Below, piece after piece: positions 12,152 through 41,393 of a stretch of 64,000 nt of DNA; the first letter of the stretch is position 1; each line of letters begins with the position of its first letter. Position numbers and translations under genes: made by a program. The DNA lies in the sequence record OP172792. One strand, given 5' to 3'. The notes beneath the pieces are model-generated. The model ran no database searches and was not told the origin of the DNA. It saw only the letters and a program-made list of their open reading frames with translations. This DNA comes from Escherichia phage ECO340P2.

Positions 12152-12378
12152 GCTTTACATACAGAAGAGGAAGCGCCACCCCACGGCGTAAAGGCGGGGC
12201 TAACATACCAGGGCGCTGGTTGGAAGGTTGATCGCCGGGAGGCTGGACGCTATACATTTGTAAAGAAATGTAAAGACTAAAATAATTGCTTGCTTTCCAG
12301 GGTAGATCTGTTATTCTTATTACATGGCGAGGGGACACGGGAGCGCGAGACAAACACCACTCCTGCGCGTCATTCCCT

Positions 12379-12541
12379 AAATGAGAATGATTATCATTTA
12401 CCTTCTTAAATAAGAATCAATCTCATTTGAGTAGTTGAATGAGAATCATTCCTATTCGCAAAGTGAGAATAAGTCTCATTTACAACATTAAATGCGAATC
12501 AATCTCATTTGCATTTACATATGAGAATTGTTCTCATTCTC
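12379..12541. repeat. six palindromic iteron/operator-like sites (approx. AAATGAGAAT-N3-5-TCTCATTT)
   Basis: sites at about 12379, 12409, 12437, 12460, 12488, 12519; the last (ATGAGAAttgTTCTCAT) is a perfect palindrome. Confidence 0.6.
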
Positions 12542-12560
12542 ACCTGCATAAAAATTTTTG

Positions 12561-12600
12561 TAAACTTTAAATTTTGCTTTTGTACTTTCATTTTTGTAAA
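12561..12600. repeat. AT-rich 40-bp direct repeat, copy 1
   Basis: about 35/40 identity with 12700-12739. Confidence 0.55.
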
Positions 12601-12699
12601 AGCAAAAAAACTTTAAATACTGTGGGCGCGCAAAATTTTTAAAATTTTCCTTGACTTTTAAGTCTTATTCTTGTATGTAACATTTTAAGATAATTTTCC

Positions 12700-12739
12700 T
12701 AAACTTTAAATTTTGGTTTTCAACTTTCACTTTTGTAAA
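12700..12739. repeat. AT-rich 40-bp direct repeat, copy 2
   Basis: about 35/40 identity with 12561-12600. Confidence 0.55.
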
Positions 12740-12888
12740 TTCTTAAAAAGTTTAAATAATTTGAGGAATTTTTGAGATAACAGATAGTGAGAATTTGAGA
12801 TAACCTTTAATCTTGTTGGTAAACCTTCAGGAACCCATCTAGATCAAATCCTAGCGATGCAAACTGAAAAGATAAGTGTTCGTATAGG

Positions 12889-12933
12889 ACAAAATAATAG
12901 GCTCTCTACAGTGCTGTAGGAGCCTTATTTCTG
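12889..12933. terminator. bidirectional intrinsic terminator (AGGCTCtCTACAG-tg-CTGTAGGAGCCT flanked by T-runs)
   Basis: 12-bp stem with T-rich tracts on both strands; downstream of the leftward operon ending at 12990. Confidence 0.6.
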
Positions 12934-12989
12934 TGCTACAAAGTGACACCTTTGTTTTAAAAATGAAAAAAGTTAAAATATCACAAATA

Positions 12990-13523
12990 TCATCTTTGCG
13001 GTATTTTGTCTGGGAAAAGTATTTCTATCAGCTTGTTATGATATTTACCTAAAAGATTCTGCCCTTTCCAGGTGGCAGGGTTTAGCACCCCTGGTTCATA
13101 CATCCCCATTCCAATTCCGTATACCTTATCGTAAGGACTTGCTTCAACAAATGTTTTGTATTGATATAGACGTAAATCGGCATACAAGTCTGGATTCTGT
13201 ACATACTTCAAGCATAAGCCTCGCATTACAATACGCTCACGATTCTCTTCCCATACTTTGTTATCGAAGCCAGCTACTGCCCTACCCATACGTTTGTAAT
13301 AAGCTTGTATCTTCTCATCTTCTCGTTTTAAACTATGAGTCAGAATAGCCTGTGCAGTGCTGTGGTCATTAAAAAGCAAAGCTTTACGCCACATCATATA
13401 TTGTTCTACACAGTTAAATGTTTCATTGTATCCTAGCTCCGTCTCTGTAAATGGTGCAAGATACCAATTACTAAACACATCTTTATGTGAAAAGAAGAAT
13501 ACATATTCATCAGTTATTCTCAT
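12990..13523 (-). CDS. NADAR (YbiA-like, DUF1768) domain protein; putative ADP-ribosyl/N-glycoside hydrolase
   Basis: recalled YbiA-family pattern: FFFS..FSNWY..PF, EQYMMWRKALLF, YYKRMGRAV, C-terminal LGKYHNKL; AGGAGG RBS. Confidence 0.7.
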   Translation of the reverse strand: MRITDEYVFFFSHKDVFSNWYLAPFTETELGYNETFNCVEQYMMWRKALLFNDHSTAQAILTHSLKREDEKIQAYYKRMGRAVAGFDNKVWEENRERIVMRGLCLKYVQNPDLYADLRLYQYKTFVEASPYDKVYGIGMGMYEPGVLNPATWKGQNLLGKYHNKLIEILFPDKIPQR

Positions 13524-13698
13524 TTTTCATACCTCCTAAGACTTCAGCTTGCCCGTCTTGAAAAGCTTTCATCAGAACTATCTTAAGATTGACTTCCAAA
13601 CGTTCTTCATCCTTTCTATAACAATCCAACACTGCCTTAAGTTCATCATAGTGGTTCAGGATAGGTTTAAAGATTTCATGATCTGCTAAACGTGCCAT
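13510..13698 (-). CDS. hypothetical protein
   Basis: ORF in operon. Confidence 0.5.
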   Translation of the reverse strand: MARLADHEIFKPILNHYDELKAVLDCYRKDEERLEVNLKIVLMKAFQDGQAEVLGGMKNENN

Positions 13699-13711: not shown

Positions 13712-14077
13712 TTAGTCCATCCACCAGTAGCCGTAAACCGCGTCTGCGTCGATGAGTTTGTGTTTGTTGTTCCGCATGTAGTCTAAGATAAGTAGACGTT
13801 TATTGTATCTGGAGAGATTATGACCCTCTTTTCCGCCATAGTCAAAATATTTTGCAAGATCTTTACATTCAAACAAAATTAGTTCAGGAGTTTCCTCACA
13901 CTGGTCTGTCTGGTACACTTGACGAATGATCATGTATACATCATCGTCTTCCGCTAAATGCTCTACTGGTCCACATCCAGCAGGAACAAATTCATAATCC
14001 CATCGAATCAGATGTGTCTCTACTGCTTCAAAGAAGTCCATTCTTTCGTTGCGCATAATTTGAACGTCAACTAACAT
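13712..14077 (-). CDS. hypothetical protein
   Basis: ORF in operon. Confidence 0.5.
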   Translation of the reverse strand: MLVDVQIMRNERMDFFEAVETHLIRWDYEFVPAGCGPVEHLAEDDDVYMIIRQVYQTDQCEETPELILFECKDLAKYFDYGGKEGHNLSRYNKRLLILDYMRNNKHKLIDADAVYGYWWMD

Positions 14078-15279
14078 GTTTCCTCCTGTAATGTTCCACC
14101 ATAAAGTTTATAAATATTTTGTATTGATGCCATGCAAGATAACTCCACTGTCTCTGTGTAGCCATCTGGCATAGAATATTTGCTCACTGCTTCCGTGTGA
14201 AGGACACGCTTACAACGCTTTTCTGCATCTTTGCATTGCTTCACAGTAGGGAAGTGCCACACTTGGCTCTGTTTCATAGTAAACACATTACGACTATTTT
14301 GTTCTTTGATACGGCGATTACTATTATTAGCAATACCAAACTTCAGTGCACAGATAATATCTTGCTCATCGTAAATATAATTAATGTAGGCTTGTTGTTG
14401 ATTCATACCTGCACAACCAGGGCAACCACACCCCTTATTTAACCAATTGTTAGCACTACACACATGTTTCCCATGATCCTTGCAACCATATTCAAAATCC
14501 CCAAGTATAGAAGCTTTCCCGATCCACCCCAACCACACGTACCCTCTACGTTCTACGTCACTTTTTGCTCTAAATGTCACCTCTTCTTCAGAATATTTGT
14601 AACTGGCAGAACAACGACAAGGGCGCATACCCTGTTTTAATGAACTACCTCTACCGATAAAATATCCCGTTCCTACCCCAGCTTTGGAAAACTCATCTAT
14701 AGCACAGATAGGGCAAAATACACTCCAAAGTATTTCGCTCCTCCCAGCTTTTTCCCCTGTATTAGTGAAGGTAGTGCCTTCGGGAAACACACCCGTACTC
14801 ATGAAATCTTGTATGTGCTGATCGTCTGAAAGCTTATTGTGTTTACCTATACCCTCTAAACGACAAACTGGACAACCTTGTTTATTATTCTTAAAGTTGT
14901 CTATGGTAGATGTGTTAAACTCGTGACCCCTATCACAACGTAAGATTACTCGTGTCTTTTTAGCTTTCAGCCATTCTCCGTAGATACCCAAGAAGCGCCA
15001 ACCTCTTTTTAACGCTTCTTCTTCACACTCTTTCTCTTGGTCCTCTCTGCTCTTCGTTCTCTTCTCCCTTTTTGTTAATTCACCACAAGAAGGGCAAGAC
15101 TTCCCACTTTTAAAGTTAGATATTTTACAAGTATCCCATACACCGTGCACAGGACATTCTATCAGGAGTTTAGTCTCACACCCTTTCCATTCTTTATGGC
15201 CTAAAATTTTATATCCTTTAGAGAGAGCTATGATCTCGCATTCTGCTTTATATTCTTCCCAACTTTTAGCTTTACTCAT
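14071..15279 (-). CDS. Cys-rich protein with three tandem zinc-ribbon-like repeats
   Basis: three repeats of C-x-x-HG-x-[WF]...NF...G-x-x-CP-x-C (CPVHGVW..CPSCG; CDRGHEF..CPVCR; CKDHGKH..CPGC). Confidence 0.55.
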   Translation of the reverse strand: MSKAKSWEEYKAECEIIALSKGYKILGHKEWKGCETKLLIECPVHGVWDTCKISNFKSGKSCPSCGELTKREKRTKSREDQEKECEEEALKRGWRFLGIYGEWLKAKKTRVILRCDRGHEFNTSTIDNFKNNKQGCPVCRLEGIGKHNKLSDDQHIQDFMSTGVFPEGTTFTNTGEKAGRSEILWSVFCPICAIDEFSKAGVGTGYFIGRGSSLKQGMRPCRCSASYKYSEEEVTFRAKSDVERRGYVWLGWIGKASILGDFEYGCKDHGKHVCSANNWLNKGCGCPGCAGMNQQQAYINYIYDEQDIICALKFGIANNSNRRIKEQNSRNVFTMKQSQVWHFPTVKQCKDAEKRCKRVLHTEAVSKYSMPDGYTETVELSCMASIQNIYKLYGGTLQEETC

Positions 15280-15320: not shown

Positions 15321-16460
15321 TTAGAACACGCTACCCAGTGTGGTGGAACGTTGTGTTACAGGCTCCAGCACCACTCGCAGAGTGTTTCCTGGCGTAGTGC
15401 TCATAACCAGAATCTTACCACCTTCAATCAGATCACAAGTTAGACCATCAGCCGTTGCACATAGATCAATATGTGGATCACCATCTTCATCTAGGATAAC
15501 ATAACTATTGGTTTCCATTGCTTCCACTTCATCATCTTTCAAGCTTTGTAGATAGATGTTCAGGGAACAAGCACCCGACAAAAACTTAGTAGGGGTAAAG
15601 TCGTGCCAGTTATTGATCCAATTCACCTTCAGGGTTTTGCCATTAGCTACGATAGAAGCCACATTCCATTTAGCATCGTTGCCTAAAGAAATACCCATCA
15701 TTTCAAGACATTCTTTAAAAGTCATTTTTGGATAGAAATTCAATTCTTCTACAATGCCTTGAATAACATCGAAAGACAACTCTGTGCTAACATCCCATAA
15801 ACGTTGGAAGTTATCTACGTGCTTTTTATTTACCAAGTTCTTATCTAAGTAATCTAACATAGTTTCACTAGACAGTTTATCGTAATTGAAACTGTAATAG
15901 ATACGACTAGGACGGTTTACAAAATATTCCGAGATATAACCACTATTTTTAGTGAGGATGTAAAGTTTATTCCCACTTCCTGTTCCATCCAACAAGGTCA
16001 ACAGTGCTTCCTGATCTTCTTTCTTAGCGTACACTTTATCAAATTCGTCAAATAAAACAACAGCACGATCTGTAATTTTACTCATAAATTCTAAGAAGCC
16101 AGCATCTGTGTAAGGCTGTGTAACCAAAATGGTTGGAATACCTAAACCTTCTGTGGACATTAGAGACATGCTAATTAGTTTAGCTAACATCGTCTTACCA
16201 CTGCCTTTTGTCCCTGTCAGTAACACTCCAGTATTTTTACCTTCTTTACTACGACGAGCAAATGTTTTAATAACATGTGCGGCGCGGTCTTTAGTTTCCC
16301 CATAAAGAGTGTTCGGAAGAGAGAAACTTTCACCACGCACTAAAGAGTAGTTACCGTGCGGATCGCAGTTGACAACCCAAACTCCAGCAGGAAGTTTATT
16401 AGCTTCAACGCCATATTCCTTATTTACAACAGCGACATCTCCAAAAATAGTGTATTTCAT
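15321..16460 (-). CDS. AAA-type ATPase
   Basis: Walker A LLTGTKGSGKTMLAKL and Walker B VVLFDEFDK. Confidence 0.7.
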   Translation of the reverse strand: MKYTIFGDVAVVNKEYGVEANKLPAGVWVVNCDPHGNYSLVRGESFSLPNTLYGETKDRAAHVIKTFARRSKEGKNTGVLLTGTKGSGKTMLAKLISMSLMSTEGLGIPTILVTQPYTDAGFLEFMSKITDRAVVLFDEFDKVYAKKEDQEALLTLLDGTGSGNKLYILTKNSGYISEYFVNRPSRIYYSFNYDKLSSETMLDYLDKNLVNKKHVDNFQRLWDVSTELSFDVIQGIVEELNFYPKMTFKECLEMMGISLGNDAKWNVASIVANGKTLKVNWINNWHDFTPTKFLSGACSLNIYLQSLKDDEVEAMETNSYVILDEDGDPHIDLCATADGLTCDLIEGGKILVMSTTPGNTLRVVLEPVTQRSTTLGSVF

Positions 16461-30463: not shown

Positions 30464-31069
30464 ATGCAACATAGTGTAGTAGTTAACATGCCAAATAACG
30501 GGGATAAATCTTTTGGTATCCCTGCTAAAAAAGTGTGGAAAGCCCATTTTCATCTTACTTTATCTAACGTTAGTTCTGAAGAGTTGATGGAAGCAGCTAA
30601 GATCATTGGTGCCAAATGCACAACAATTGATTTACATCGGGATACAAAGTCTCAACGTGATCGTATGCTAACAAAGTATCAAAGCGATCTCGACACTACT
30701 TTAATGTTGCAGTGTGTAGAAAAACTTGAGAATGCAGGTTTCAATGTTGTTCGTTACAAACTGGAACGAATGTTTAAACATGTTGCCTGTGTTCTTTTCA
30801 TGGATCTAAGTAAAGAAAATTATGGAGAAGTTCACATTAAGACTTCAGCAAGTGATCCTGAAGTAGAAACAAACTTCTTCCGTATTTCTTCTAATGTTGA
30901 AGAAATTGACTACCGATTTTATAATGCTCGCTTATATTCCGCAGAAGATAAGTTGCGTTTCAATGAAGCATATGATATGCTCTTGAACAGCGGGATACAG
31001 ATAAAAGGCTACCACATAGAACAAGTTGTGGTAGACAGTAACTTAAATCTTGATGCATGGTGGGCCTAA
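30464..31069 (+). CDS. hypothetical protein (weak 2H-phosphoesterase-like HxTx motif)
   Basis: single HLTL motif near N-terminus; second motif not canonical. Confidence 0.45.
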   Translation: MQHSVVVNMPNNGDKSFGIPAKKVWKAHFHLTLSNVSSEELMEAAKIIGAKCTTIDLHRDTKSQRDRMLTKYQSDLDTTLMLQCVEKLENAGFNVVRYKLERMFKHVACVLFMDLSKENYGEVHIKTSASDPEVETNFFRISSNVEEIDYRFYNARLYSAEDKLRFNEAYDMLLNSGIQIKGYHIEQVVVDSNLNLDAWWA

Positions 31070-31070
31070 T

Positions 31071-31727
31071 ATGACAATAAAACATATCTCTTTTGATGTA
31101 TGGAACACTCTTATTTCTACCAATCAAAACTATGCAGATGCACGTACGCATACTATCGCCACTTATGGTAGAATGTCTGAACGTGCAGCCAAAGAAGCAT
31201 ACAAAGATGCCAAAGAAATCATGGATAATGCTGCACTAAATGGGTGTGCAGAGGGTGTAGCATATGCATGGAATATGTTGGGAAGAAAGATAGGTTTAAC
31301 CCCTGTAGAATCTGCACAAATGCGTTTTGAGTGTGAACAATGGTTTCTTAAATTTCCTCCACATATTGCCTTAGATTTGCCAGTTTGTTTGCTATATTTG
31401 TCTGGTAAATATGACCTTAGTATTAAAAGCAATACTAATTTTATATCTGGGGATATTTTGCGTCGTGCTTGTATGTTTGACAGTTGGAATTGTTTTGAAT
31501 TTATGCATTTTTCAGACGAACATCTGTTGTGTAAACCAGATCCTAGATTCTTTGTTAGGACAGCCACATATTCAAGCATTCCTTTGAGGGCTGAAGAGAT
31601 TTTACATGTTGGGGACAGCGAAGAATTTGATGGTAAATGTGTTGACATAGGGATTAACTTCTGTCATATTAAGAACCCTAACGACTTACTAGAGAAACTT
31701 AAAAGAGGAGAAATTGTAAATGCGTAA
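31071..31727 (+). CDS. HAD-superfamily hydrolase (phosphatase-like)
   Basis: HAD motifs: FDVWNTL (I), SIKSN (II), KPDP (III), VGDSEEFD (IV). Confidence 0.65.
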   Translation: MTIKHISFDVWNTLISTNQNYADARTHTIATYGRMSERAAKEAYKDAKEIMDNAALNGCAEGVAYAWNMLGRKIGLTPVESAQMRFECEQWFLKFPPHIALDLPVCLLYLSGKYDLSIKSNTNFISGDILRRACMFDSWNCFEFMHFSDEHLLCKPDPRFFVRTATYSSIPLRAEEILHVGDSEEFDGKCVDIGINFCHIKNPNDLLEKLKRGEIVNA

Positions 31728-32547
31728 TCAAACTCAAATTTTTGCAAACAAATTTGATGATCTGGAAACTGCTACTTTTGATATCAAAGACTATTCAAAA
31801 TTGAAATTTGGTAGTAACCAGGCTGCGCGTCGTATGGGTAAAGAATTGGCCCTTCAGTTTTTTGCTCAAGTAGCAATGAAACATATTGGGGAACAATTTG
31901 TTATCATCCCTTCTCCTTATAACCATGTGCATAATGCTGCAACAATGATGACAGATCATTTTATTAATTACTTTAATATGTTGCAAGCACAATATGATCA
32001 AGGTCGTTCAGCAGAACTGGATATTATTCATCGTAAAGTTAGCTATATCAACGATTATGGTTTCTTGGATAAAGCTAGTCGTAAGAAACTTATTGATGGG
32101 GATACATTCTACTGCAACAAAGAATTCTGGGGTGATAAGAAGCTTGTGTTCATTGATGATGTAAATATCACTGGAACTCATGAAGACAAACTGATTGAGA
32201 TCCTTGATGAAAATCAAGTTAAAAATGATGTTTACTTCTTGTATTTTGCAAAATATGAAGGTAATCAAGCAGATACCGAAGCTAAACTGAATTTTAACTA
32301 TATTAATACACCAGAAGCATTTGTTAAAATGATTAATGAAGAACGTGATGCACAGTGTCTTGTTCGTCCTATTAAGTATCTTATGGGTCAAAATCACGAA
32401 GACTTCAAAATCATTCTTAGCCAATTGCCACACTACTATGTAGAGCAGCTTTTCTTCGGATGTTTGGGAGAAGGTTACAACCGAATTGCAAAGTATGCTG
32501 AAAACTTTGAGTTCTTGGATCGTTACACAAAACAACATATTCTGTGA
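31720..32547 (+). CDS. type I phosphoribosyltransferase-fold protein
   Basis: PRPP-binding loop KLVFIDDVNITGTHEDK. Confidence 0.6.
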   Translation: MRNQTQIFANKFDDLETATFDIKDYSKLKFGSNQAARRMGKELALQFFAQVAMKHIGEQFVIIPSPYNHVHNAATMMTDHFINYFNMLQAQYDQGRSAELDIIHRKVSYINDYGFLDKASRKKLIDGDTFYCNKEFWGDKKLVFIDDVNITGTHEDKLIEILDENQVKNDVYFLYFAKYEGNQADTEAKLNFNYINTPEAFVKMINEERDAQCLVRPIKYLMGQNHEDFKIILSQLPHYYVEQLFFGCLGEGYNRIAKYAENFEFLDRYTKQHIL

Positions 32548-32560
32548 TAAGGATCTAAAA

Positions 32561-33046
32561 ATGCTTAAAATGAAAACAGGTAATCTTATTGATGCCGCTA
32601 AAGCAGGGGAAGTAACGGTTATTGCTCATTGTTGTAATTGTATGTGTAACATGGGGGCAGGTATTGCCCCACAAATAAAATATGCGTTTCCATATGCATA
32701 CGAAGCAGATTTAGCTACAGGAGCAGGAAACCAGAAAAAGCTTGGTTCTTTTAGTTTAGGAGAACCAGAAGATTATCCTAATCCTATGGTATACAACCTT
32801 TATGGACAATATCGTTATGGATATAATAGTAAAGGTCGTCAATTAGATTATGATGCACTGTATGATGCTCTTGCAGCTATGGCAATGGACTTACACAATT
32901 ACGATAAAGGAGATCAACCAGCACATAAGATTGGTCTACCTATGATAGGTGCAGGTCATGCTGGAGGTAATTGGGCTATCATTGAAGTCATGATCAAAGA
33001 AACTTTAGTAAAAGCTGGTCACGATGTGACTATTTATAAACTTTAA
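32561..33046 (+). CDS. macro-domain protein (TARG1/Poa1p/DarG-like)
   Basis: VIAHCCNCMCNMGAGIAPQIKYAF matches recalled TARG1-type macro signature (hC.s.d..MGaGIA..F). Confidence 0.65.
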   Translation: MLKMKTGNLIDAAKAGEVTVIAHCCNCMCNMGAGIAPQIKYAFPYAYEADLATGAGNQKKLGSFSLGEPEDYPNPMVYNLYGQYRYGYNSKGRQLDYDALYDALAAMAMDLHNYDKGDQPAHKIGLPMIGAGHAGGNWAIIEVMIKETLVKAGHDVTIYKL

Positions 33047-33604: not shown

Positions 33605-34579
33605 ATGCAACTTGGTTTCCCAATTATTGATGTAGTTGTTTTAGTTGGTATTTTAGCATTGTCTATTGGTATCGATTTCTTTGGTCATAAAGAAAATAAA
33701 GAAATTGGAATCAAATCTGCTTTGCTTTGGTCTGTTTTTTGGATTGCTTTAGCTTTAGGGTATTACGCATTCATTTGGGTAGAACATGGTAAAGAATTTG
33801 CCGCGCTTTTCCTAAGTGGTTATGTGTTGGAAAAGAGTCTTTCTGTAGATAACCTAATGGTGTTCATGGCAATTTTTGCAAGCTTTGGAATTAAAAGCAC
33901 ACATCTCCAACATAAGATCTTACTTTGGGGGATTGCAGGAGCCATTGTCTTCCGAGGTATTTTTGTTGCAGCAGGCACCGCTTTGTTTAACCTTCATTGG
34001 TCGGTCCAAGTGTTGTTTGGTCTGATTGTAGCTTGGTCTGCCGTTGCTATTATCAAAGGGGGTGACGAAGAAGAGGATATTGATTACTCTAAACATTGGG
34101 CTGTTCGTTTAGTAGGTAAAGTTCTGCCTATGCACAATGCACTGGATGGTGAAAAGTTCATTACTATTAAGAATAGTATTAAATATGCAACCCCTGCTCT
34201 TCTTTGTGTGTTTGTTATTGAGCTTACAGATATTGTCTTCTCTTTTGATTCAGTTCCGGCTGTGATTGGTGTGACACAAGAACCTCTGCTAGTTTATTCT
34301 GCAATGCTGATGGCTGTTCTTGGCCTACGTGCACTTTTCTTTGTGTTAAGTGTAGCTGTGAAATATTTGGTTCACTTAGAGAAAGCTGTTGCTGTGGTTC
34401 TGGTGTTTGTTGGTGCTAAACTTATGTATCACCCGTTCGGTGAAACACTTCATGCCAAGTGGTCATTCCTCCCGCATGATATCTCTCCTAACGTAAGTTT
34501 AATGATTGTTCTAGGCACATTAGCTCTTGGTGTTATTGCAAGCTTTATCTTTCCTGAAAAAGAAGAAGCCACTGTTTAA
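33605..34579 (+). CDS. terC: TerC-family integral membrane protein
   Basis: multiple TM helices; SLSVDNLMVF and ELTDIVFSFDSVPAVIGVT signatures. Confidence 0.8.
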   Translation: MQLGFPIIDVVVLVGILALSIGIDFFGHKENKEIGIKSALLWSVFWIALALGYYAFIWVEHGKEFAALFLSGYVLEKSLSVDNLMVFMAIFASFGIKSTHLQHKILLWGIAGAIVFRGIFVAAGTALFNLHWSVQVLFGLIVAWSAVAIIKGGDEEEDIDYSKHWAVRLVGKVLPMHNALDGEKFITIKNSIKYATPALLCVFVIELTDIVFSFDSVPAVIGVTQEPLLVYSAMLMAVLGLRALFFVLSVAVKYLVHLEKAVAVVLVFVGAKLMYHPFGETLHAKWSFLPHDISPNVSLMIVLGTLALGVIASFIFPEKEEATV

Positions 34580-34584
34580 TAGAT

Positions 34585-34610
34585 GAGCCTCCTTCGGGAG
34601 GCTATTTTAT
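34585..34610 (+). terminator. intrinsic terminator AGCCTCCttcgGGAGGCT + T-run
   Basis: 7-bp GC stem, tetraloop, ATTTTAT. Confidence 0.65.
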
Positions 34611-34621
34611 AGGAGAGACTT

Positions 34622-34972
34622 ATGAGTAATTTTGATGAAATTCAAGAACTTGTTTGGGATTTATGTGGTGATGTGGATTACGTTTCGGACTATCTTTCAA
34701 AAGTTTACCCTGGGGTAAGCGTTATGATTGTGACAAAAGATCCAATTAACTTACCTCCTAATGTGGTAGCTTGTTGTGGAAGTGGTTCAGGAGAAGTGGA
34801 GCCTGTATCTCGTTGGGAATTAACTAAAGCCGTTTCAAAACGAAACGGTGAAGTTTTGAATATTGATATCGAGCAAATATGGACTTCTCCAGCAGCCAAA
34901 TGGAATGATCCAAATGGTTGGGATTTGTTCTTTTGGGATAATGAAACTGATGATGAGGTATTTTTAAAATGA
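34622..34972 (+). CDS. hypothetical protein
   Basis: ORF with GGAGAG RBS. Confidence 0.55.
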   Translation: MSNFDEIQELVWDLCGDVDYVSDYLSKVYPGVSVMIVTKDPINLPPNVVACCGSGSGEVEPVSRWELTKAVSKRNGEVLNIDIEQIWTSPAAKWNDPNGWDLFFWDNETDDEVFLK

Positions 34973-35155
34973 AATACTTGTTGGTTGTGTTTGAAAATAT
35001 TTGTTTTGCAATAGGTTTGTTTGTTGTAATTTTTGTATTGACAAGCGTAATCAACGGCAGTAAAGTGAGTTTATACCGAGATGGAGAGCAGCTTTATTGC
35101 TTCTCTGGAGATTTCAAACACAGATGTATTAATAGTCAAAACGAGGAAAGCAAAT

Positions 35156-35593
35156 ATGAAAAAACTAGCCCTGATTTTAATTGGTTGTATCTTTTTAACA
35201 GCTTGCGAGGATGAAACAAATCCTGCACAATACCAACAACCTCCTCAACAATACGCTCAACAAGGATCTGACGGAGATACAACTATTATCAACAATGGTG
35301 GCGGCTCTAGTAGTAGCGGTGTTGGGGAGTTTGCTACAGGTATGTTGTTAGGGCATATGATGAGCGGTGGTAGTAATCGTGGTGGCGGAGATTATAACGA
35401 TAACAGAACGATTATTAATAAACATTATAACACACCTAAACCAAAGACTAATTTTTATGGTAAACCTAAACAAGAGACAAAAACTTATGAAAAGCCGAGA
35501 CAAACTTTTAAAACAAATAGTAGCTATACAACTCGTAAATCTTACAGTAGCCCTTTAAGTAAAAAGAGTTCATCTCGTAGCAAGCGACGTTAA
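35156..35593 (+). CDS. lipoprotein with Gly/Ser-rich and basic C-terminal regions
   Basis: MKKLALILIGCIFLTAC lipobox after trimming to ATG 35156. Confidence 0.6.
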   Translation: MKKLALILIGCIFLTACEDETNPAQYQQPPQQYAQQGSDGDTTIINNGGGSSSSGVGEFATGMLLGHMMSGGSNRGGGDYNDNRTIINKHYNTPKPKTNFYGKPKQETKTYEKPRQTFKTNSSYTTRKSYSSPLSKKSSSRSKRR

Positions 35594-35607
35594 TAAGGAG
35601 AAAAACA

Positions 35608-36201
35608 ATGACAATTTCTATTCGTACTTCCATCGTAGGTGTTAAAAGGTTGCCTAATGCTTTGCAAATCACACGTGCTTTGAGGGATACGTTCTCTGCT
35701 GTGGATGAGCATAAAATGCTTGATAATCTCTCAAATTGGCCCTATTTTCATTATTTTAAAAATGAAGATGACGAGTTTATAGATGCTGTTTCTTATGGTT
35801 ATGATTTCGGTAAGGAGGTTTCTCCTGAAGAATTTGTAGCTACGGTATTCCCAAATGGTTTTCCTACTCGCAGCAAACGTAAAAAAGGACCAAAAAACAA
35901 GAAACGTGCTATTAATAAAGCTACCATTTTCTTTACTGATGGGACACAGTATACGATTAAAGATTTTGAAGAAGTATCTTATACAGCAGGTGGAAATCTT
36001 TCTTTCTACACCATCAAAAAACAAAACGCTACGTTCAGCCATGTTTCTAACATGATTGAAATGTTAGTAGAAGATATTGAAAGCGTGGCTGTGTTAGGTA
36101 TGCATAAAAGCTTTTTAATTACAAATATTTCAGATTTCAGTGCACGTTTATCTAGCCCTGATTTTGAAGCCACGACCACGCATTTCACTTTTAAGGTGTA
36201 A
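35608..36201 (+). CDS. hypothetical protein
   Basis: ORF with AAGGAG RBS. Confidence 0.55.
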   Translation: MTISIRTSIVGVKRLPNALQITRALRDTFSAVDEHKMLDNLSNWPYFHYFKNEDDEFIDAVSYGYDFGKEVSPEEFVATVFPNGFPTRSKRKKGPKNKKRAINKATIFFTDGTQYTIKDFEEVSYTAGGNLSFYTIKKQNATFSHVSNMIEMLVEDIESVAVLGMHKSFLITNISDFSARLSSPDFEATTTHFTFKV

Positions 36202-36204
36202 GTT

Positions 36205-36795
36205 ATGTATACCGAGAGAGACTTGCAACTCTTGTGGTGGGAAGTGATGCAGGAAATAAAAGAAGATTTTCCTGTTTACTACAACATGTTACGTGAAGCA
36301 GGATATAAAGCTTGCGTTAGAAACAAAGTGAATAACTCTTTTGGTTGGTGCAACTACCGAGATAAAATTGTTGTTGTAAATTGGCACTTGCATAAGAACT
36401 CTACAAGAGATATGATCGTGGATACAATGAAGCATGAAATTGCTCATGCTATTGATGGTTGTATGGGTAAGTTTAGTAGGCACGGTGCTCATTGGCAAAA
36501 ACTGGCAGCAGAATTAGGGGCTAATCCTAAAGCCACTTCCAAAGAGCCGTTGAACCACGAATATAAATATGTTCTTGTTCTGGTAGATAGGTTTGCGACA
36601 AGGTGTGTTAGAGGTTATAATCGTAAACCTAATCGCATGTACCCAGGTAAGCAACCTAATATGTGGTTGAAATCAGATAAAGAAGGGACCGAAGGAAAAT
36701 TATGGTTGTATAAATGGGACGATTGGGTTAAAGTAGCTAAAGAGTACGGTGTTTCACCATATATAAGAGATGCAGAAGAGGAGAATGAAGAATGA
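36205..36795 (+). CDS. SprT-like zinc metallopeptidase-domain protein
   Basis: HEIAHAIDG (HExxH) followed by HGAHW. Confidence 0.55.
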   Translation: MYTERDLQLLWWEVMQEIKEDFPVYYNMLREAGYKACVRNKVNNSFGWCNYRDKIVVVNWHLHKNSTRDMIVDTMKHEIAHAIDGCMGKFSRHGAHWQKLAAELGANPKATSKEPLNHEYKYVLVLVDRFATRCVRGYNRKPNRMYPGKQPNMWLKSDKEGTEGKLWLYKWDDWVKVAKEYGVSPYIRDAEEENEE

Positions 36796-37904
36796 CAAGT
36801 CCATTTTTAAAAGCAGCTACTGGTGGTCAGAAGAAGTCTGAAATGAGTGTATTCGCTGCAACAACAGATGCAAGTAAATCTGTATTCGCGCCAAGCGTGT
36901 TAGATGCCAGTCCTGTTTATGCACCAGCCGCACCGCAAGAAGTCCCAGTTTTGCCTTCTATGACCCGACAAGAGATCGAAGAGATTGGGGCAGAGGCAGG
37001 AACAACCTTGCGTTCCTTGAATGCCGAGGTATTAAAACATCAACGTAGTAATCAAGGCGATCAGATGAGTGAACGACTCACAGCTTTGATTAAACAGGCA
37101 AAACAACTTGATCCAAACTCTATTAAACAAAGCAAGGGTATTACTAAACTCATTAAAAAGGTCATGGGTATGAAAGAAGACCTGTTCGGGGAGTTTGATA
37201 ATGTTAATAACCGTATTGAAGAGTTAGTAAAGAACCTTCAAATGGATATTCGCAAAGAAGAAGATTCCTTAGTATATCTTGAAAAACTACATCAAGCTAT
37301 TGGACAATATGCTGCAAGTTTGAACCGAGATATGCAGCTTCTAACAGCAACCTATGAAAAAGAAGAGCAAGCTTTGGCTGCTCTTCCAGAAGATGCAGTA
37401 GAACAGCGACAAGTGATCCGAGATACTTTGGATCTTCTGGAGATTCGTATTGCGGATTTAAAAGCATTGCGCCTACTGTGTGTCCAAATGGGACCACGTG
37501 TACAAGGTATGCAAAAAGTTTCTGCAAGCTTAATGCGATCTGCGCGTAACATAGTAAATAATGTTATCCCTGCTTACTCTGCTAACTTCTCAATGTATAT
37601 TGAGAGCTTACGTCAAATGAAAGCCGCAGAAACACAGAATAACGTTCTTGATGAATTTAACCTGGCAATTAAATTAGGTAGTGATTTGGCTACACAAAAT
37701 CAGATTGAAGCCGCAGCATTGGCTAACCGTCAAGTGTTAGATATTGATACTCTGCGACACGATCAGGAAAACTTAGTTAAAATGCTGGAAGAAACAAATC
37801 GCATCAATACAGAAGCCCGTGCTGCTCGTGTTGATTATATTAATGAAGTTCAATCTCTGGAAGACGGGATGGTAGCTGCTGTAAAACGAGGACTTGGTAA
37901 ATGA
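36792..37904 (+). CDS. helical protein, possibly TelA/KlaA-like toxic-anion-resistance family
   Basis: 370-aa largely helical protein within Ter-like cluster; family call from context and composition only. Confidence 0.35.
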   Translation: MTSPFLKAATGGQKKSEMSVFAATTDASKSVFAPSVLDASPVYAPAAPQEVPVLPSMTRQEIEEIGAEAGTTLRSLNAEVLKHQRSNQGDQMSERLTALIKQAKQLDPNSIKQSKGITKLIKKVMGMKEDLFGEFDNVNNRIEELVKNLQMDIRKEEDSLVYLEKLHQAIGQYAASLNRDMQLLTATYEKEEQALAALPEDAVEQRQVIRDTLDLLEIRIADLKALRLLCVQMGPRVQGMQKVSASLMRSARNIVNNVIPAYSANFSMYIESLRQMKAAETQNNVLDEFNLAIKLGSDLATQNQIEAAALANRQVLDIDTLRHDQENLVKMLEETNRINTEARAARVDYINEVQSLEDGMVAAVKRGLGK

Positions 37905-38095
37905 GAATCCGTGTTTATATGATTGATGATAGCTTTGGTGTCCGTTATGATGACGAAAAACGATTCGCGCCGATTAGCGGCATACATCCCCTAAGTGTTT
38001 TGGCAGCTTGTCGTGATAAATATCTCTATGAAGCTTGTAATCATTTTGGTTTTGAGCTTCTTTCAGATGTAGAGTTTAATGAGGAGGAAGGATGA
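37901..38095 (+). CDS. hypothetical small protein
   Basis: ORF, coupled. Confidence 0.5.
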   Translation: MRIRVYMIDDSFGVRYDDEKRFAPISGIHPLSVLAACRDKYLYEACNHFGFELLSDVEFNEEEG

Positions 38096-38265
38096 AAATA
38101 TTACGCGTGAATATTGAAACCGCTTGGTGCGGATGTAATGAGGTTGTGGATATTGAAATTGAAGATGATATGTCTAAAGAGGATATAGAAGATCTTGCAC
38201 ACGAAACCTTTCAGGACTATTGTAGCTATGGGTTCCATATTTTAGAGGAGGAAGAAGATGTATAA
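38092..38265 (+). CDS. hypothetical small acidic protein (57 aa)
   Basis: hand-translated ORF with GAGGAGGAAGG RBS. Confidence 0.45.
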   Translation: MKILRVNIETAWCGCNEVVDIEIEDDMSKEDIEDLAHETFQDYCSYGFHILEEEEDV

Positions 38266-38656
38266 TCCAACAGGTATTCTTTTAAAACTCACAGTAACAG
38301 ATCCTACTCTTTTCACCAAGTTAGTCAGTGGTGAAGTCTATGAAGTAATGAAAGATGACGACGGTTGGTGTTATCTTTGTGGCTACTACCTCTGTGATGC
38401 AGAAGAGTTAGAATCCATTACAACTAAAGGTTTTTATGAAGAACCAGGCTTCCGTGTGGAAACTACACAGAAACCTGATACCATTACGTTGACTCGACAG
38501 GAACTGATCACAATCATTGAAGATGCTTTTATTGATGGTTGGAATACACAAGATAATGATTGGGGTGGACCTGAAGCTTTTCTAGAACATCATAAAGCTT
38601 ACGGAGAATTTTGTGAAACCACTGTAGCTCTTGATAATCTGAAGGAGGGTTTGTAA
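38258..38656 (+). CDS. hypothetical protein
   Basis: ORF with GGAGGAAG RBS. Confidence 0.55.
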   Translation: MYNPTGILLKLTVTDPTLFTKLVSGEVYEVMKDDDGWCYLCGYYLCDAEELESITTKGFYEEPGFRVETTQKPDTITLTRQELITIIEDAFIDGWNTQDNDWGGPEAFLEHHKAYGEFCETTVALDNLKEGL

Positions 38657-39219
38657 TGGGTTGTTTTAGCTTTTTGTGTAAGGAATCGGGCAAAGCTGCC
38701 CTTTCTACTTCTTTCGACGGATCGCCTTGCTATCTCTTTCTTTTGAAAGATGGTGTTGTTATTGAAGAGATGTATGGCAACTACGATAGTTATGGTTGTG
38801 TTTTCTCTGGAAAGGAGGACGAAAATGGCGTTCGTGAACGGTTTGATTGGGTTATGGATTGGAGTAAGGTTTGTGATTTGATGCATTCCTCAAATCCAAG
38901 GGACGGTATCGCTATGGTGCTGGAAGAGTACTTTACAGGTGAAATCCCTACAGAACAATCTGACAGAGATCCTAACCAAGGTTGGGGTGATGGTGAAGAA
39001 GATCCAGATTGTTTTTTCAGCACAGAAAAGAATAAGTTTAAACGTGTTGACAACCCTTATCACAAAGTGCATAATACTCTCATTGAAACAGAAGATGACA
39101 AGATGGAAATTGAAGAAGATGATCCTCTTGTAACACTTCCTATAAGCGAGTTACAAAAGATTACTAAAGAAGCTTACGATTTGGGCTTCAAAATTGGTAG
39201 AGGAGGTATGCGTGTTTAG
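38656..39219 (+). CDS. hypothetical acidic protein
   Basis: ORF with GGAGGG RBS. Confidence 0.55.
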   Translation: MGCFSFLCKESGKAALSTSFDGSPCYLFLLKDGVVIEEMYGNYDSYGCVFSGKEDENGVRERFDWVMDWSKVCDLMHSSNPRDGIAMVLEEYFTGEIPTEQSDRDPNQGWGDGEEDPDCFFSTEKNKFKRVDNPYHKVHNTLIETEDDKMEIEEDDPLVTLPISELQKITKEAYDLGFKIGRGGMRV

Positions 39220-39484
39220 ATTCAATATTCAAGAAGAAAAGTATAAGGATTTACCTGTTCCTTTCGAAGATCTTGACGTAGGGGATACATTCATGTATTA
39301 TGCTGCCTATGAAGATGCAGGGTTGGATACTTACATTAATTTGGTGTTCATTAAAAGTTCTCCAAACAGCGCAATCTGCATCAGTGGATCGCAACGAGGT
39401 TATACACATTGTATCCCGCCAGATACAAATATGGTGGAAGTAGATTTAGAAGTTACCAATATCACACTTAAGAAGGAGAAATAA
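39194..39484 (+). CDS. hypothetical protein, paralog of 40506..40775
   Basis: shared DLDVGDTF motif and C-terminal ..VT(N/G)ITLK. Confidence 0.55.
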   Translation: MVEEVCVFRFNIQEEKYKDLPVPFEDLDVGDTFMYYAAYEDAGLDTYINLVFIKSSPNSAICISGSQRGYTHCIPPDTNMVEVDLEVTNITLKKEK

Positions 39485-39485
39485 T

Positions 39486-40280
39486 ATGTCCGAGAAAATC
39501 AGCCTGAAAAAACGTCAAGAAAACCTTGCTTTCTCTCTGAAAAAGAATAAGAACCTGAATGAAGGTAAGATTGTTCTTCGTGTAGCATGTGCTCTAGATA
39601 TTTCTGGTAGTATGCATGGTCTATATGCTCGTGGAGTAGTGAGTGATTTTGTAGGTAAACTGCTCCCTTTTGGTATGCTGTTCGACGATAATGAACAAAT
39701 TGATATGTGGGCCTTCAATACAAGTTCTCAAGAGCTTACTCCAGCAACAGCAGACGTTTACGATGATTATGTTGGTAAATGTATGCGTAATGTTCGTATC
39801 GGAGGTGGAACAAATTACGCCCCTGTAATGGCAGATATCTACGATGAGTATTTTGGCACTGTTACCAAATATATTACCACTAAACAAGTGGTACAAGAGG
39901 AGGCTCCAAAGAAAGGCTTCTTTAATCGTCTGCTTGGTAAAACTGAAACAGTATCTGTAGAGCGTGAAAAGGTTGTAGCTGTATCTGAACCAGGTGCTGA
40001 CGTTACCCCTGGTGTTGTATTCTTCCAGACGGATGGTGAGAATGGTGATCCTAGTGCTGTTCGTCGTCTTATTGAAGAGAATAAGAATAAACCTATTTAT
40101 TGGTTCATGGTTGGCGTCGGTAATGAGAAGTTTGGCTTCCTGAAAGAACTGGCAAATGCTTATGATAATGTTGGTTTTATTGGCATTAAAGATTTAGACT
40201 TGACAGATTCAGAGCTTTATGACAAACTCTTATCTGAAGAGTTCGGAGAGTGGGTTGTTAAAGTAGGTGCTAAAAAATGA
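39486..40280 (+). CDS. von Willebrand factor A (vWA) domain protein, TerY-like
   Basis: MIDAS motif ALDISGSMHG; N-terminal KISLKK shared with TerD gene. Confidence 0.65.
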   Translation: MSEKISLKKRQENLAFSLKKNKNLNEGKIVLRVACALDISGSMHGLYARGVVSDFVGKLLPFGMLFDDNEQIDMWAFNTSSQELTPATADVYDDYVGKCMRNVRIGGGTNYAPVMADIYDEYFGTVTKYITTKQVVQEEAPKKGFFNRLLGKTETVSVEREKVVAVSEPGADVTPGVVFFQTDGENGDPSAVRRLIEENKNKPIYWFMVGVGNEKFGFLKELANAYDNVGFIGIKDLDLTDSELYDKLLSEEFGEWVVKVGAKK

Positions 40281-40525
40281 TCGACGAGCTTGCCTCTCAA
40301 GTCGTAGAAAATTATTGGCGCGAGAGAGAAGCTTTCATTATGCGCAGTCTCAAAGAATATTTCATTGGGACTGTGCGGATGGAAGATATTGTAAGTAGAG
40401 TAGAGATTCATGTATGGCCTGATTATGAAGAATGGGTTGACAAAGAAAATGAAAATGCTATAATTCTTCGTATATACAAACCGGAGATAACATTAGGAGG
40501 AAGAAGTGTTAAACTTCGAAATTGA
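40277..40525 (+). CDS. hypothetical protein
   Basis: ORF, coupled. Confidence 0.5.
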   Translation: MIDELASQVVENYWREREAFIMRSLKEYFIGTVRMEDIVSRVEIHVWPDYEEWVDKENENAIILRIYKPEITLGGRSVKLRN

Positions 40526-40775
40526 TGAGCAAAAAATAAATAAACGATGCCTTACCATTAAAGATTTGGATGTAGGAGATACTTTCGTCTATGAAAATGC
40601 ATTTGACGAAAATGGTTTAGACCTTAGTGAAGTCATTGTTTATTTAAAAGTAGATGATGGGGAAAATGATTATTCTGCTGTAGAATTAAACCATCATGCA
40701 CAATTAGTAGCAATCCAAAACACATCTAAGCTTTTGGAAGTAGAATTGACTGTAACTGGTATTACACTTAAATAA
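40506..40775 (+). CDS. hypothetical protein, paralog of 39194..39484
   Basis: DLDVGDTF motif. Confidence 0.55.
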   Translation: MLNFEIDEQKINKRCLTIKDLDVGDTFVYENAFDENGLDLSEVIVYLKVDDGENDYSAVELNHHAQLVAIQNTSKLLEVELTVTGITLK

Positions 40776-40790
40776 TAGAGGAGACAAAAG

Positions 40791-41393
40791 ATGACTGATA
40801 AAATTTCCCTGAAAAAAGGCTCTAGCGAAAAAATTTCCCTGAAGAAAGTTGCTCCGGCTCTGAAAGAACTGCGCCTGGAATTCTCTTGGAAATCTGATTC
40901 TAAACTGGATCTGGATGTAAGTGCACTGGTTTGTCGTCATAATGCCGCTGGCAATCCTGAAATGCTGTCTGCACGTCATCTGGTTTGCTATGCTAACAAG
41001 TTTGATCCTGAACGTTCTACCTTTGCTGGTGACGATGTTCGTGATGGGACTGGCAGCATGGAGCAGATTGATATTACTCTGGCTAAAATCTCTCCCGATG
41101 CACAAGAGATTGCCTTTGTTCTGACCATTGATGATGATACAGGTCTGAAACGTTTTGGTCATGCTTCTGAAGGTATGCTTAAAATCTTCGACTCCGAGTG
41201 TAATGTGGAAATTCTGGATTTTGACTTCCTGGCTCCTGAAGTAGCTGGCAACACAATCTGCCACGTGGCTTCCTTGGTTCGTGAAGATGGTGAATGGAAG
41301 CTGAAAGCATATGGTGTAGGTAAAGCTGGTCTGGATATTTGTGATGTGGTGATGGCCTTCGGTGGTAAAAAAGAATGGTATGAATGTCCATAA
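40791..41393 (+). CDS. terD: TerD-domain stress protein
   Basis: KISLKKG...ISLKK, DLDVSAL, GDDVRDGTG, MLKIFDSE, C-terminal WK..A.G.G.AGL. Confidence 0.75.
   Translation: MTDKISLKKGSSEKISLKKVAPALKELRLEFSWKSDSKLDLDVSALVCRHNAAGNPEMLSARHLVCYANKFDPERSTFAGDDVRDGTGSMEQIDITLAKISPDAQEIAFVLTIDDDTGLKRFGHASEGMLKIFDSECNVEILDFDFLAPEVAGNTICHVASLVREDGEWKLKAYGVGKAGLDICDVVMAFGGKKEWYECP

Follow-up and report, generated by a model that had tools for sequence, protein, structure and literature searches.

Does the open reading frame (ORF) at positions 12,990 to 13,523 of the Escherichia phage ECO340P2 sequence encode an enzyme that could free phage DNA from ADP-ribose attached by host defence systems, as the initial annotation suggested on the basis of a NADAR/YbiA-like signature? 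The window considered here is the whole stretch of 64,000 nucleotides from sequence record OP172792, which comes from a Phapecoctavirus (phAPEC8/ESCO5-like). The features at the locus are as follows.

12990..13523, minus strand: NADAR (AdfN-like) coding sequence, an intact ORF of 177 codons from ATG to TGA
13532..13537, minus strand: Shine-Dalgarno motif AGGAGG, 8 nt 5' of the NADAR ATG, read from the sequence
13510..13698, minus strand: upstream ORF of 62 amino acids, overlapping the NADAR start by 14 nt
12888..12924, minus strand: terminator-like hairpin (12900-12924, GGCUCCUACAG-CACU-GUAGAGAGCC) followed by a U-tract (UAUUAUUUUG)

The gene encodes a single-domain NADAR-family protein of 177 residues. 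The Pfam NADAR/DUF1768 profile (PF08719) was matched with a score of 123.6 bits (cut-off 35.1; E = 1.2e-35), far beyond chance, and the alignment spans protein residues 11-161 and profile positions 3-154 of 163, which bears out both the full-length signature proposed earlier and the Pfam search suggested as its check. A match to PHROG 1017 (E = 1e-50) was also obtained, and a phmmer search of the PDB recovered a solved NADAR structure, 8BAU, at an E-value of 4e-14; beyond it, only YbiA and an unrelated endolysin were detected at E-values up to 1. The AlphaFold2 model is of high confidence (mean pLDDT 96.3, pTM 0.90) and presents a YbiA-like α-helical core (helices 39-50, 54-62, 72-81, 88-108, 111-119 and 157-169) flanked by small β elements (strands 7-10 and 124-127). 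When the model was compared with the PDB using Foldseek, 8BAU (TM 0.79) and E. coli YbiA, 2B3W (TM 0.69), were the only structures at E < 1, so that structure prediction, the other check proposed at the outset, returned NADAR structures exclusively.

The active site is intact. In the Phytophthora nicotianae enzyme (PnNADAR, the protein in the ADP-ribose-bound structure 8BAU), ligand contacts have been defined by crystal structure and mutagenesis (PMC11543638), and alignment with this structure gives the following set.

E40, K47, K77, R81, F86, W91, R95, E127 and D132 of the NADAR protein: predicted catalytic and ADP-ribose-binding residues

Eight PnNADAR contacts are kept (E40 for E43, K47 for K50, K77 for K75, R81 for R79, W91 for W89, R95 for R93, E127 for E125 and D132 for D130) and three show conservative substitutions (F86 for Y84, N88 for D86 and Y135 for W133). 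E40, K47, K77, W91, E127 and D132 are invariant across 68 homologues, and all nine residues of the set are invariant in nine Phapecoctavirus alleles. The catalytic Glu and Lys of NADAR enzymes are spaced by seven, as in PnNADAR (E43/K50), DarG1 of E. coli C7 (E88/K95) and T4 (E36/K43) (PMC11543638; PMC11257639), and the same spacing is found here in E40/K47, which align with E36/K43 of the T4 protein AdfN^T4, where mutation of these residues abolishes counter-defence (PMC11257639).

The gene closes a co-directional block on the minus strand. Its Shine-Dalgarno motif lies within the 3' end of the upstream 62-residue ORF and, therefore, the two genes are probably translationally coupled; this small ORF is 95-97 % identical at the nucleotide level in other Phapecoctavirus genomes. 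According to Pfam, the upstream neighbours include a CapR/MUG113-domain protein and an AAA ATPase, while those of 62, 121 and 128 residues gave no match in the Pfam scan. Since the same scan detected neither DarT nor any other ADP-ribosyltransferase (ART) domain among the adjacent genes, the NADAR gene is an orphan. The hairpin and U-tract start 66 nt past the stop codon; the RNA fold of positions 12880-12995 has an energy of -30.4 kcal/mol (z = -4.06), and the homologous site in phAPEC8 carries a terminator annotation (ARNold). A simple terminator pattern scan had missed the 12900-12924 hairpin, which was recovered by RNA folding together with the phAPEC8 annotation. The leftward transcription unit ends at this hairpin, and the gene's description as the last of that unit agrees with the end of the minus-strand block and with both of these signals. 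No tRNA genes were found in the ORF-free gap downstream or in the rest of the window.

The closest validated relative is AdfN^Bas60 (bas60_0111, QXV83846.1) of Escherichia phage PaulScherrer (Bas60), a Justusliebigvirus (Johannesman et al., Nat Commun 2025;16:1598). The two proteins are 58 % identical over 172 residues (E = 4e-68), with 42 % of the aligned positions differing and a 7-residue gap near residue 28. Both phages belong to the subfamily Stephanstirmvirinae, in which Phapecoctavirus and Justusliebigvirus have been described as sister clades (PMC8594841), and the gene order is common to both: AAA ATPase, endonuclease-like gene, NADAR and then a long non-coding gap. The ORFs of 121 and 62 residues between the endonuclease-like gene and NADAR, which the window shares with the Phapecoctavirus records that were inspected, are absent from the Bas60 annotation. 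By sequence identity and gene order the NADAR gene is orthologous to that of AdfN^Bas60. The Bas60 protein counteracts DarT1, and in its presence RB69, T5 and Bas25 are rescued on hosts that carry DarTG1, whereas T5 is not rescued on those with DarTG2 (Nat Commun 2025;16:1598). Neutralisation of DarT1 and plating rescue have been demonstrated for AdfN^T4, AdfN^Bas32 and AdfN^Bas60 only (Nat Commun 2025;16:1598); of the two orthologues compared here, it is the Bas60 protein whose activity has been measured.

With a probability of roughly 0.7, we consider the gene to encode a free-standing ADP-ribosylglycohydrolase of the AdfN type, an 'orphan antitoxin' that would remove guanine-linked ADP-ribose from phage DNA and so defeat DarTG1. 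The analysis itself establishes the family, fold, intact active site, purifying selection, genus-wide presence and orthology to a validated AdfN; the guanine-ADP-ribose substrate on DNA and the anti-DarTG1 phenotype would be carried over from AdfN^Bas60 and from NADAR activity in vitro. The anti-DarT role attributed to the gene in the initial annotation gains support from this syntenic, DarT1-neutralising relative, and the general statement that NADAR enzymes hydrolyse guanine-linked ADP-ribose is in accordance with PMC11543638. In such a scheme, the protein would be made after infection from the last cistron of the leftward multi-gene unit, while a host ADP-ribosyltransferase of the DarT1 type would modify the N2 of guanine in phage DNA. 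NADAR would bind the attached ADP-ribose, with K47, R81, W91 and R95 predicted to hold the diphosphate, F86 to stack on the adenine, and E40 and E127 to flank the distal ribose. Hydrolysis of the N-glycosidic bond would then restore replicable DNA, and the abortive-infection defence by DarTG1 would be defeated.

Presence across the genus and the pattern of divergence add to this picture. The NADAR gene and an adjacent conserved ORF each match 70 phage records, and the counts per organism agree exactly. Against eight other Phapecoctavirus alleles, dN/dS for NADAR is 0.05-0.09 (~0.1) and the gene is under purifying selection. Its synonymous divergence is, however, 4-10 times that of the flanking genes, and half of the variable residues fall in codons 51-90. 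Diversifying selection, suspected from this divergence above that of the neighbours, was rejected, as dN/dS is 0.05-0.09 for the whole gene and 0.16 in its most variable segment; because the surplus of substitutions lies mostly at synonymous sites, it stems from alleles that are old or have been exchanged and not from positive selection. At 58 % identity, and with half of the variable residues in codons 51-90, in-vivo specificity could differ from that of AdfN^Bas60.

A broader or different eraser, acting on ADP-ribosyl-cytidine, on guanine-ADP-ribose in RNA or on soluble ADP-ribose-derived immune signals, and thereby countering ART or NADase defences beyond DarT1, seems unlikely but deserves consideration. 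It belongs to the general group of Glu-type NADARs, with PnNADAR as its best solved relative, and the position of its E127 is occupied by Asp in DarG1 and by His in T4-like AdfN; some members of the Glu-type and YbiA groups remove cytidine-linked besides guanine-linked ADP-ribose, in both DNA and RNA, which DarG1 and the T4 NADAR do not. Other ADP-ribosylating defences have been raised as possible targets (Nat Commun 2025;16:1598), and in the view of Iyer et al. the majority of phage NADARs act on small ADP-ribose-derived molecules. Nevertheless, AdfN^Bas60, the only close relative tested, is clearly directed against DarTG1, no phage-defence system that ADP-ribosylates cytidine was reported in the literature searched, and a wider substrate range would be largely compatible with the AdfN function and not exclusive of it. 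In view of the 4-10-fold synonymous divergence relative to the flanking genes and of the concentration of half of the amino acid variation in residues 52-90, it is conceivable, though rather doubtful, that the Stephanstirmvirinae NADAR lineage is a broad nucleic-acid eraser (guanine- and cytidine-ADP-ribose, DNA and RNA) and not an enzyme specialised against DarT1; its alleles, remarkably old and reshuffled, would then be adapted to differing host ART defences, some of them undiscovered.

A housekeeping role as a YbiA-type N-glycosidase, acting on reactive intermediates of the riboflavin pathway in metabolic damage control with no part in defence, is very improbable. It would be in keeping with a score of 112.6 bits (cut-off 73.7) for TIGR02464, the model named 'riboflavin biosynthesis intermediates N-glycosidase', with the presence at E127 of the Glu by which de Souza and Aravind defined the YbiA subfamily (PMC11543638), and with several GenBank records reading 'GTP cyclohydrolase II' or 'YbiA-like N-glycosidase'. 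However, AdfN^Bas60, with proven anti-DarTG1 activity, also passes TIGR02464 (109.4 bits) and, because both proteins exceed the cut-off, this model cannot separate the two functions. The identity with YbiA is 30 %, at a phmmer E-value of 0.45 as compared with 4e-14 for PnNADAR, and the published phylogeny places AdfN^Bas60 among the non-YbiA bacterial NADARs (Nat Commun 2025;16:1598). Moreover, ybiA is already present in the host, the protein is a single domain with no fusion to RibA or RibD, the ESCO5 annotation of the region carries no riboflavin-biosynthesis label save on the mislabelled NADAR gene, and the name 'GTP cyclohydrolase II' has been taken over from fusions of RibA with NADAR (COG3236 note). 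Less credible still is a partnership with a phage-encoded ART, in which NADAR would act as antitoxin or regulator by reversing or limiting self-inflicted ADP-ribosylation: NADAR genes of T4-like phages are expressed early along with ART genes (Iyer et al.), and T4 30.3 is a few genes away from alt, but Pfam detected no ART domain in the NADAR neighbours or in the 29 ORFs of the window that were scanned, a part of a genome of ~150 kb, and AdfN^Bas60 acts alone in E. coli.

The proposal that the phage carries a macro-domain gene besides NADAR was also followed up, and such a gene is present.

32570-33046, plus strand: macro-domain gene of the Tk.4/AdfM type (DarG/TARG1-like clade), assigned by homology

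It lies ~19 kb from the NADAR gene on the opposite strand and is unlinked to it; its start corresponds to M29 of the mechanical ORF 32486-33046, and M26 at 32561 is also possible. The Pfam Macro profile scored 20.6 bits (E = 4.6e-4), just under its gathering cut-off of 22, and PDB matches include 5E3B (E = 4e-12), the Thermus DarG macrodomain 5M31 (E = 3.9e-5) and TARG1 (E = 3e-3). DarG is the only NCBIfam and PADLOC match for this protein, as it is in PADLOC for Tk.4, and the identity with T4 Tk.4/AdfM is 39 % (E = 5e-21). Tk.4/AdfM has been reported, in a preprint and for T4 tk.4 only, as an anti-DarTG2 factor directed at thymidine ADP-ribosylation. Homology to AdfN^Bas60 and to T4 Tk.4/AdfM thus favours the earlier suggestion of two ADP-ribose erasers in one phage, and Phapecoctaviruses probably carry erasers against both DarTG1 (NADAR) and DarTG2 (the Tk.4-like macrodomain).

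Public records label the NADAR gene as 'hypothetical protein' or, wrongly, as 'GTP cyclohydrolase II'; the latter annotation was rejected, the protein having no such domain and the label stemming from the RibA-fusion naming of COG3236. The present assignment offers a functional name, AdfN-like DNA ADP-ribosylglycohydrolase, for the gene in all 70 Phapecoctavirus-like records that match the conserved neighbour. Phapecoctaviruses are among the phages isolated or studied for phage therapy, and the putative presence of both erasers may help in predicting host range on DarTG-bearing E. coli. A literature search returned no paper linking Phapecoctavirus with NADAR, the sole matches being the author surname Nadareishvili in reference lists. 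The AdfN concept and a close ortholog were already published in 2025 and the pairing of NADAR and macrodomain in T4 is known, hence no new question is opened.

Every NADAR family assayed to date hydrolyses guanine-linked ADP-ribose in vitro, and comparison with the known systems helps to place the window protein among them. As regards PnNADAR, the best match among solved structures, the window protein has approximately five additional residues in the 63-73 loop and lacks the N-terminal helices. Free-standing bacterial NADARs (Burkholderia, Kofleriaceae) are 42-49 % identical to it and likewise have no adjacent DarT. E. coli YbiA resembles it in fold, in the Glu at the E127 position and in the TIGR02464 match, but the ybiA gene, unlike the phage gene, belongs to a LexA-controlled chromosomal operon beside dinG. 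Both YbiA and T4 gp30.3 hydrolyse a guanine-ADP-ribose model substrate and yet do not rescue cells from DarT1, an indication that in-vitro hydrolysis is no guarantee of protection in vivo.

DarG1 (BC4488 subfamily; E. coli C7, Geobacter lovleyi) belongs to the same superfamily, and the same chemistry is predicted for the window protein, in which K115 of C7 DarG1, the Lys required for in-vivo rescue, is present as K77. DarG1 is, however, encoded beside darT1, whereas the phage gene has no darT1 adjacent to it, and the Asp of DarG1 (C7 position D171) is replaced by Glu (E127). The N-terminal β1-β2-α1 DNA-binding extension is also absent, the catalytic Glu being residue 40 here as against 88 in C7, with one short strand only preceding it in the model. 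Identity as a DarG1 antitoxin was rejected on these three grounds: no adjacent ART, E127 in place of Asp, and the missing N-terminal extension.

AdfN^T4 (gp30.3) is, like the window protein, a phage-encoded orphan NADAR, and it is a guanine-specific ADP-ribosylglycohydrolase countering DarTG1 (PMC11257639). The two are, however, only 17 % identical, and the T4-like clade has His ('KHSI' in T4) at the position of PnNADAR E125 (PMC11543638), where the window protein has Glu (E127); the C-terminal half of AdfN^T4 is shorter and, unlike the window protein, it matches neither TIGR02464 nor PADLOC. AdfN^T4 needs extra phage factors and fails to neutralise DarT1 in the absence of infection, in contrast to AdfN^Bas32 and AdfN^Bas60 (Nat Commun 2025;16:1598). 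Membership in the T4-like gp30.3 clade was rejected, given Glu instead of His and 17 % identity; at the level of the whole phage, the already described pairing of NADAR and macrodomain in T4 is mirrored. It is AdfN^Bas60 that shares with the window protein the Glu-type active site, the matches to both TIGR02464 and PADLOC PDC-M42C, and an orphan gene with no toxin beside it.

The NADAR signature that the initial annotation had placed at 12990-13523 was confirmed there by the open reading frame, by Pfam, by a match to the ADP-ribose-bound NADAR structure of Phytophthora nicotianae (PnNADAR, 8BAU) and by the predicted fold.

12990-13523, minus strand: NADAR coding sequence, an ATG-to-TGA open reading frame of 177 residues
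13532-13537, minus strand: Shine-Dalgarno sequence AGGAGG, 8 nt ahead of the NADAR ATG

The start of the gene shares 14 nt with the 3' end of a 62-residue upstream ORF, an overlap which suggests that the two may be translationally coupled. The Pfam search and the structure prediction that had been proposed as checks gave concordant results. Pfam NADAR (PF08719) covers residues 11-161 (E 1.2e-35, 123.6 bits, cut-off 35.1), and the AlphaFold2 model, built from an alignment of 68 homologues, has a mean pLDDT of 96.3 and a pTM of 0.90, its only significant fold matches in the PDB being 8BAU (TM 0.79) and E. coli YbiA 2B3W (TM 0.69). In phmmer searches of solved structures the protein matched 8BAU at E 4e-14, YbiA being found at E 0.45 only. 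It also matched TIGR02464 (112.6 bits, cut-off 73.7) and PHROG 1017, annotated as 'unknown function' (E 1e-50).

T4 gp30.3 (AdfN) strips ADP-ribose from DNA and counters DarTG1 (Johannesman et al., PMC11257639 preprint; Nat Commun 2025;16:1598, PMC11825919). AdfN^Bas32 and AdfN^Bas60, two unrelated NADARs of other phages, neutralise the toxin DarT1 in uninfected E. coli and allow RB69, T5 and Bas25 to plate again on DarTG1 hosts, but do not rescue T5 on DarTG2 hosts (Johannesman et al., PMC11825919). AdfN^Bas60 is bas60_0111 of phage PaulScherrer (Justusliebigvirus), where it is labelled 'putative YbiA-like N-glycosidase', and Bas60-62 are phi92-like phages, described as sister to the phAPEC8 phages (PMC8594841). 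A 4.5-kb segment that includes our NADAR gene matches Escherichia phage ESCO5 at 96.5% identity, and phAPEC8, ukendt, tuntematon and further Phapecoctavirus (Stephanstirmvirinae) at 92-96%. The NADAR protein is 58% identical to AdfN^Bas60 over 172 residues (E 4e-68), and both genes occupy a common genomic place, with an AAA ATPase gene and one resembling an endonuclease ahead of them and a long gap behind; on these two grounds, it is the Phapecoctavirus ortholog of this experimentally validated anti-DarTG1 factor. The nearest cellular homologues are free-standing NADARs (42-49% identical), for example from Burkholderia, with phage-like neighbours (Gp3-like and DUF7696 domains), and Kofleriaceae, and no DarT was found adjoining these examples. 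Such homologues agree with the position that AdfN^Bas60 has been given in the literature, among bacterial NADARs that are neither DarT-associated nor YbiA (Johannesman et al., PMC11825919).

The ADP-ribose contacts of PnNADAR have been defined, and mutagenesis of E. coli C7 DarG1, the NADAR antitoxin of DarT1, showed that E88, K95 and D171 are required for guanine de-ADP-ribosylation and K115 for rescue in vivo (Schuller et al., PMC11543638). Using the phmmer alignment to 8BAU (chain numbering offset +2), eight of these positions were found to be unchanged.

E40: PnE43 (C7 E88)
K47: PnK50 (C7 K95)
K77: PnK75 (C7 K115)
R81: PnR79
W91: PnW89
R95: PnR93
E127: PnE125 (C7 D171 position)
D132: PnD130

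Three more contacts carry conservative replacements (F86 for Y84, N88 for D86 and Y135 for W133). E40, K47, K77, W91, E127 and D132 are invariant in the 68 homologues, and every active-site residue listed is invariant among nine Phapecoctavirus alleles. E40 and K47 align with E36 and K43 of T4 AdfN, mutation of which abolishes counter-defence (PMC11257639). The third acidic position differs by subgroup: YbiA and general NADARs carry Glu, DarG1 carries Asp, and the NADARs of T4-like phages carry His (PMC11543638); it is Glu in our protein and His in T4 gp30.3 (aligned 'KHSI' segment).

A role as riboflavin N-glycosidase is what the TIGR02464 match and the database labels would suggest, however this model gives the validated AdfN^Bas60 an equal score, E. 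coli YbiA is only a distant relative, no gene of the region is labelled riboflavin biosynthesis in the ESCO5 annotation and the host carries its own ybiA. A more serious possibility is an eraser with a broader or different substrate. Some general NADAR/YbiA members remove both cytidine- and guanine-linked ADP-ribose from DNA and RNA, DarG1 and the T4 NADAR showing no removal from cytidine (PMC12945103); small ADP-ribose-derived signals have been proposed as phage NADAR targets by Iyer et al., and a NADAR that is active in vitro may still fail to protect against DarT1 in vivo (PMC11125620). Partnership with a phage-encoded ADP-ribosyltransferase found no support among the genes examined; since Pfam detected no such domain in the neighbouring genes, the NADAR gene is an orphan.

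The gene had also been described as the last of a leftward operon, and this is supported, as by the ESCO5 annotation it closes a block of 14 genes read in one direction from a divergent intergenic region near 18.9-19.0 kb, and is followed by a hairpin (fold energy z -4.06 for the region), at the homologous position of which phAPEC8 has an annotated terminator.

12900-12924, minus strand: terminator-like hairpin, GGCUCCUACAG-CACU-GUAGAGAGCC, then UAUUAUUUUG, 66 nt past the NADAR stop

The region holds a modest excess of sigma-70-like promoter matches (34 against a shuffle mean of 23.7). The 62-, 121- and 128-residue upstream ORFs have no Pfam hit; a neighbouring 379-residue protein is an AAA ATPase, and one of 402 residues (14071-15279, minus strand), which public records call 'endonuclease', carries three CapR-homology repeats and a weak C-terminal match of MUG113 type. 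The 402-residue gene is highly mosaic (99.7% to the ESCO5 and ukendt copies, ~75% over the 3' part elsewhere) and is missing from phiWec188, behaviour that fits a mobile, homing-type element two genes upstream of NADAR. Directly downstream of the terminator lies an ORF-free gap of ~870 nt, with ~6 copies of a ~21-nt palindromic motif, AAATGAGAATnnnTCTCATTT, at 24-29 nt spacing, and then a segment of very high AT content that contains a direct repeat of 72 nt, 82% identical (sites 12372-12540 and 12553-12763). By eye the array resembles iterons or a series of operators whose half sites are similar to Fur boxes, and it could act as a replication origin or bind a regulator; 'repeat_region' features are annotated here in phages tuntematon and anhysbys.

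At a threshold of at least 80% nucleotide identity, 70 phage records matched the NADAR gene (one by partial match only) and 70 matched the adjacent 121-residue ORF, with identical organism tallies, and hence NADAR occurs across the whole of the sampled genus. The two genes differ in their identities: 3 NADAR records fall at 95-99%, 31 at 90-95% and 36 at 80-90%, against 64, 6 and 0 for the ORF. Across eight fetched genomes NADAR is 81-96% identical to the window at the nucleotide level, the flanking 62-, 121- and 128-residue ORFs 94.5-99.5% and the AAA ATPase ~98% in seven, with 73% in phiWec188. NADAR is thus a local divergence hotspot among these genomes, and the excess is synonymous (Nei-Gojobori dS 0.18-1.26 against 0.01-0.28 for neighbours, leaving out phiWec188's divergent ATPase allele). 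Positive selection was rejected, as dN/dS is 0.05-0.09, and only 0.16 even in codons 51-90, which hold 17 of the 34 variable residues. The pattern suggests strong purifying selection on old alleles exchanged among genomes by recombination, and what sets the gene beyond the ordinary is this pattern, in which synonymous divergence is high and amino-acid variation clusters in residues 52-90. In phiWec188 the ATPase (L014 1762-2901 against window 15321-16460; 73% identical, dN 0.13), compared with ~98% in most Phapecoctavirus, indicates a second replaced segment.

Many GenBank/RefSeq records, including ESCO5, Mt1B1_P17, TSP7_1 and AV12x phages, call the gene 'GTP cyclohydrolase II', a wrong label derived from COG3236 RibA-fusion naming, and one Justusliebigvirus record calls the homologue 'DNA methyltransferase'; both names are wrong for what is a single-domain NADAR protein. 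In the literature searched no discussion of the Phapecoctavirus gene was found, and what our analysis adds is therefore a correction to the annotation and a host-range prediction that can be tested, with no new mechanism.

The companion macro-domain gene is likewise present, as last of a trio, directly after a ComF-like PRTase.

31050-31727, plus strand: HAD-like hydrolase (weak match), first of the trio
31720-32547, plus strand: ComF-like PRTase (PF15610, E 8e-42), middle of the trio
32570-33046, plus strand: macro-domain gene (mechanical ORF from 32486)
33605-41393, plus strand, past the trio: includes ESCO5-annotated TerC and 'tellurite resistance' genes
36205-36795, plus strand: SprT-like gene
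39486-40280, plus strand: vWA-TerF gene
40791-41393, plus strand: TerD gene

ARAGORN found no tRNA genes in the 64-kb window; one related Klebsiella phage record has a tRNA-Gln feature under its macro-gene match. Ter-linked clusters are proposed makers of a nucleoside-like metabolite, and the trio with its Ter genes presumably resembles them; the macro domain might serve such a pathway, instead of or besides anti-DarT2 defence. Pfam Macro scores just under its cut-off (20.6 bits against 22), and the protein matches solved DarG/TARG1-like macrodomains (SCO6735 5E3B, E 4e-12; Thermus DarG macro 5M31, E 3.9e-5; TARG1, E 3e-3). DarG is its sole match in both NCBIfam and PADLOC, as it is for T4 Tk.4 in PADLOC, and the two are 39% identical (E 5e-21). 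Tk.4 is reported to be AdfM, a macrodomain that T4 needs on DarTG2 hosts, where thymidine is ADP-ribosylated, and to work beside AdfN on DarTG1 hosts (HIDEN-SEQ preprint, 10.1101/2025.11.20.689424). For both genes, homology thus supports the proposal of two mechanistically distinct erasers that would differ in base specificity, and the interpretation as an AdfN^Bas60 ortholog paired with a Tk.4/AdfM-like macrodomain is well supported. A NADAR and macrodomain arrangement has already been described in T4, which the pair reported here mirrors.
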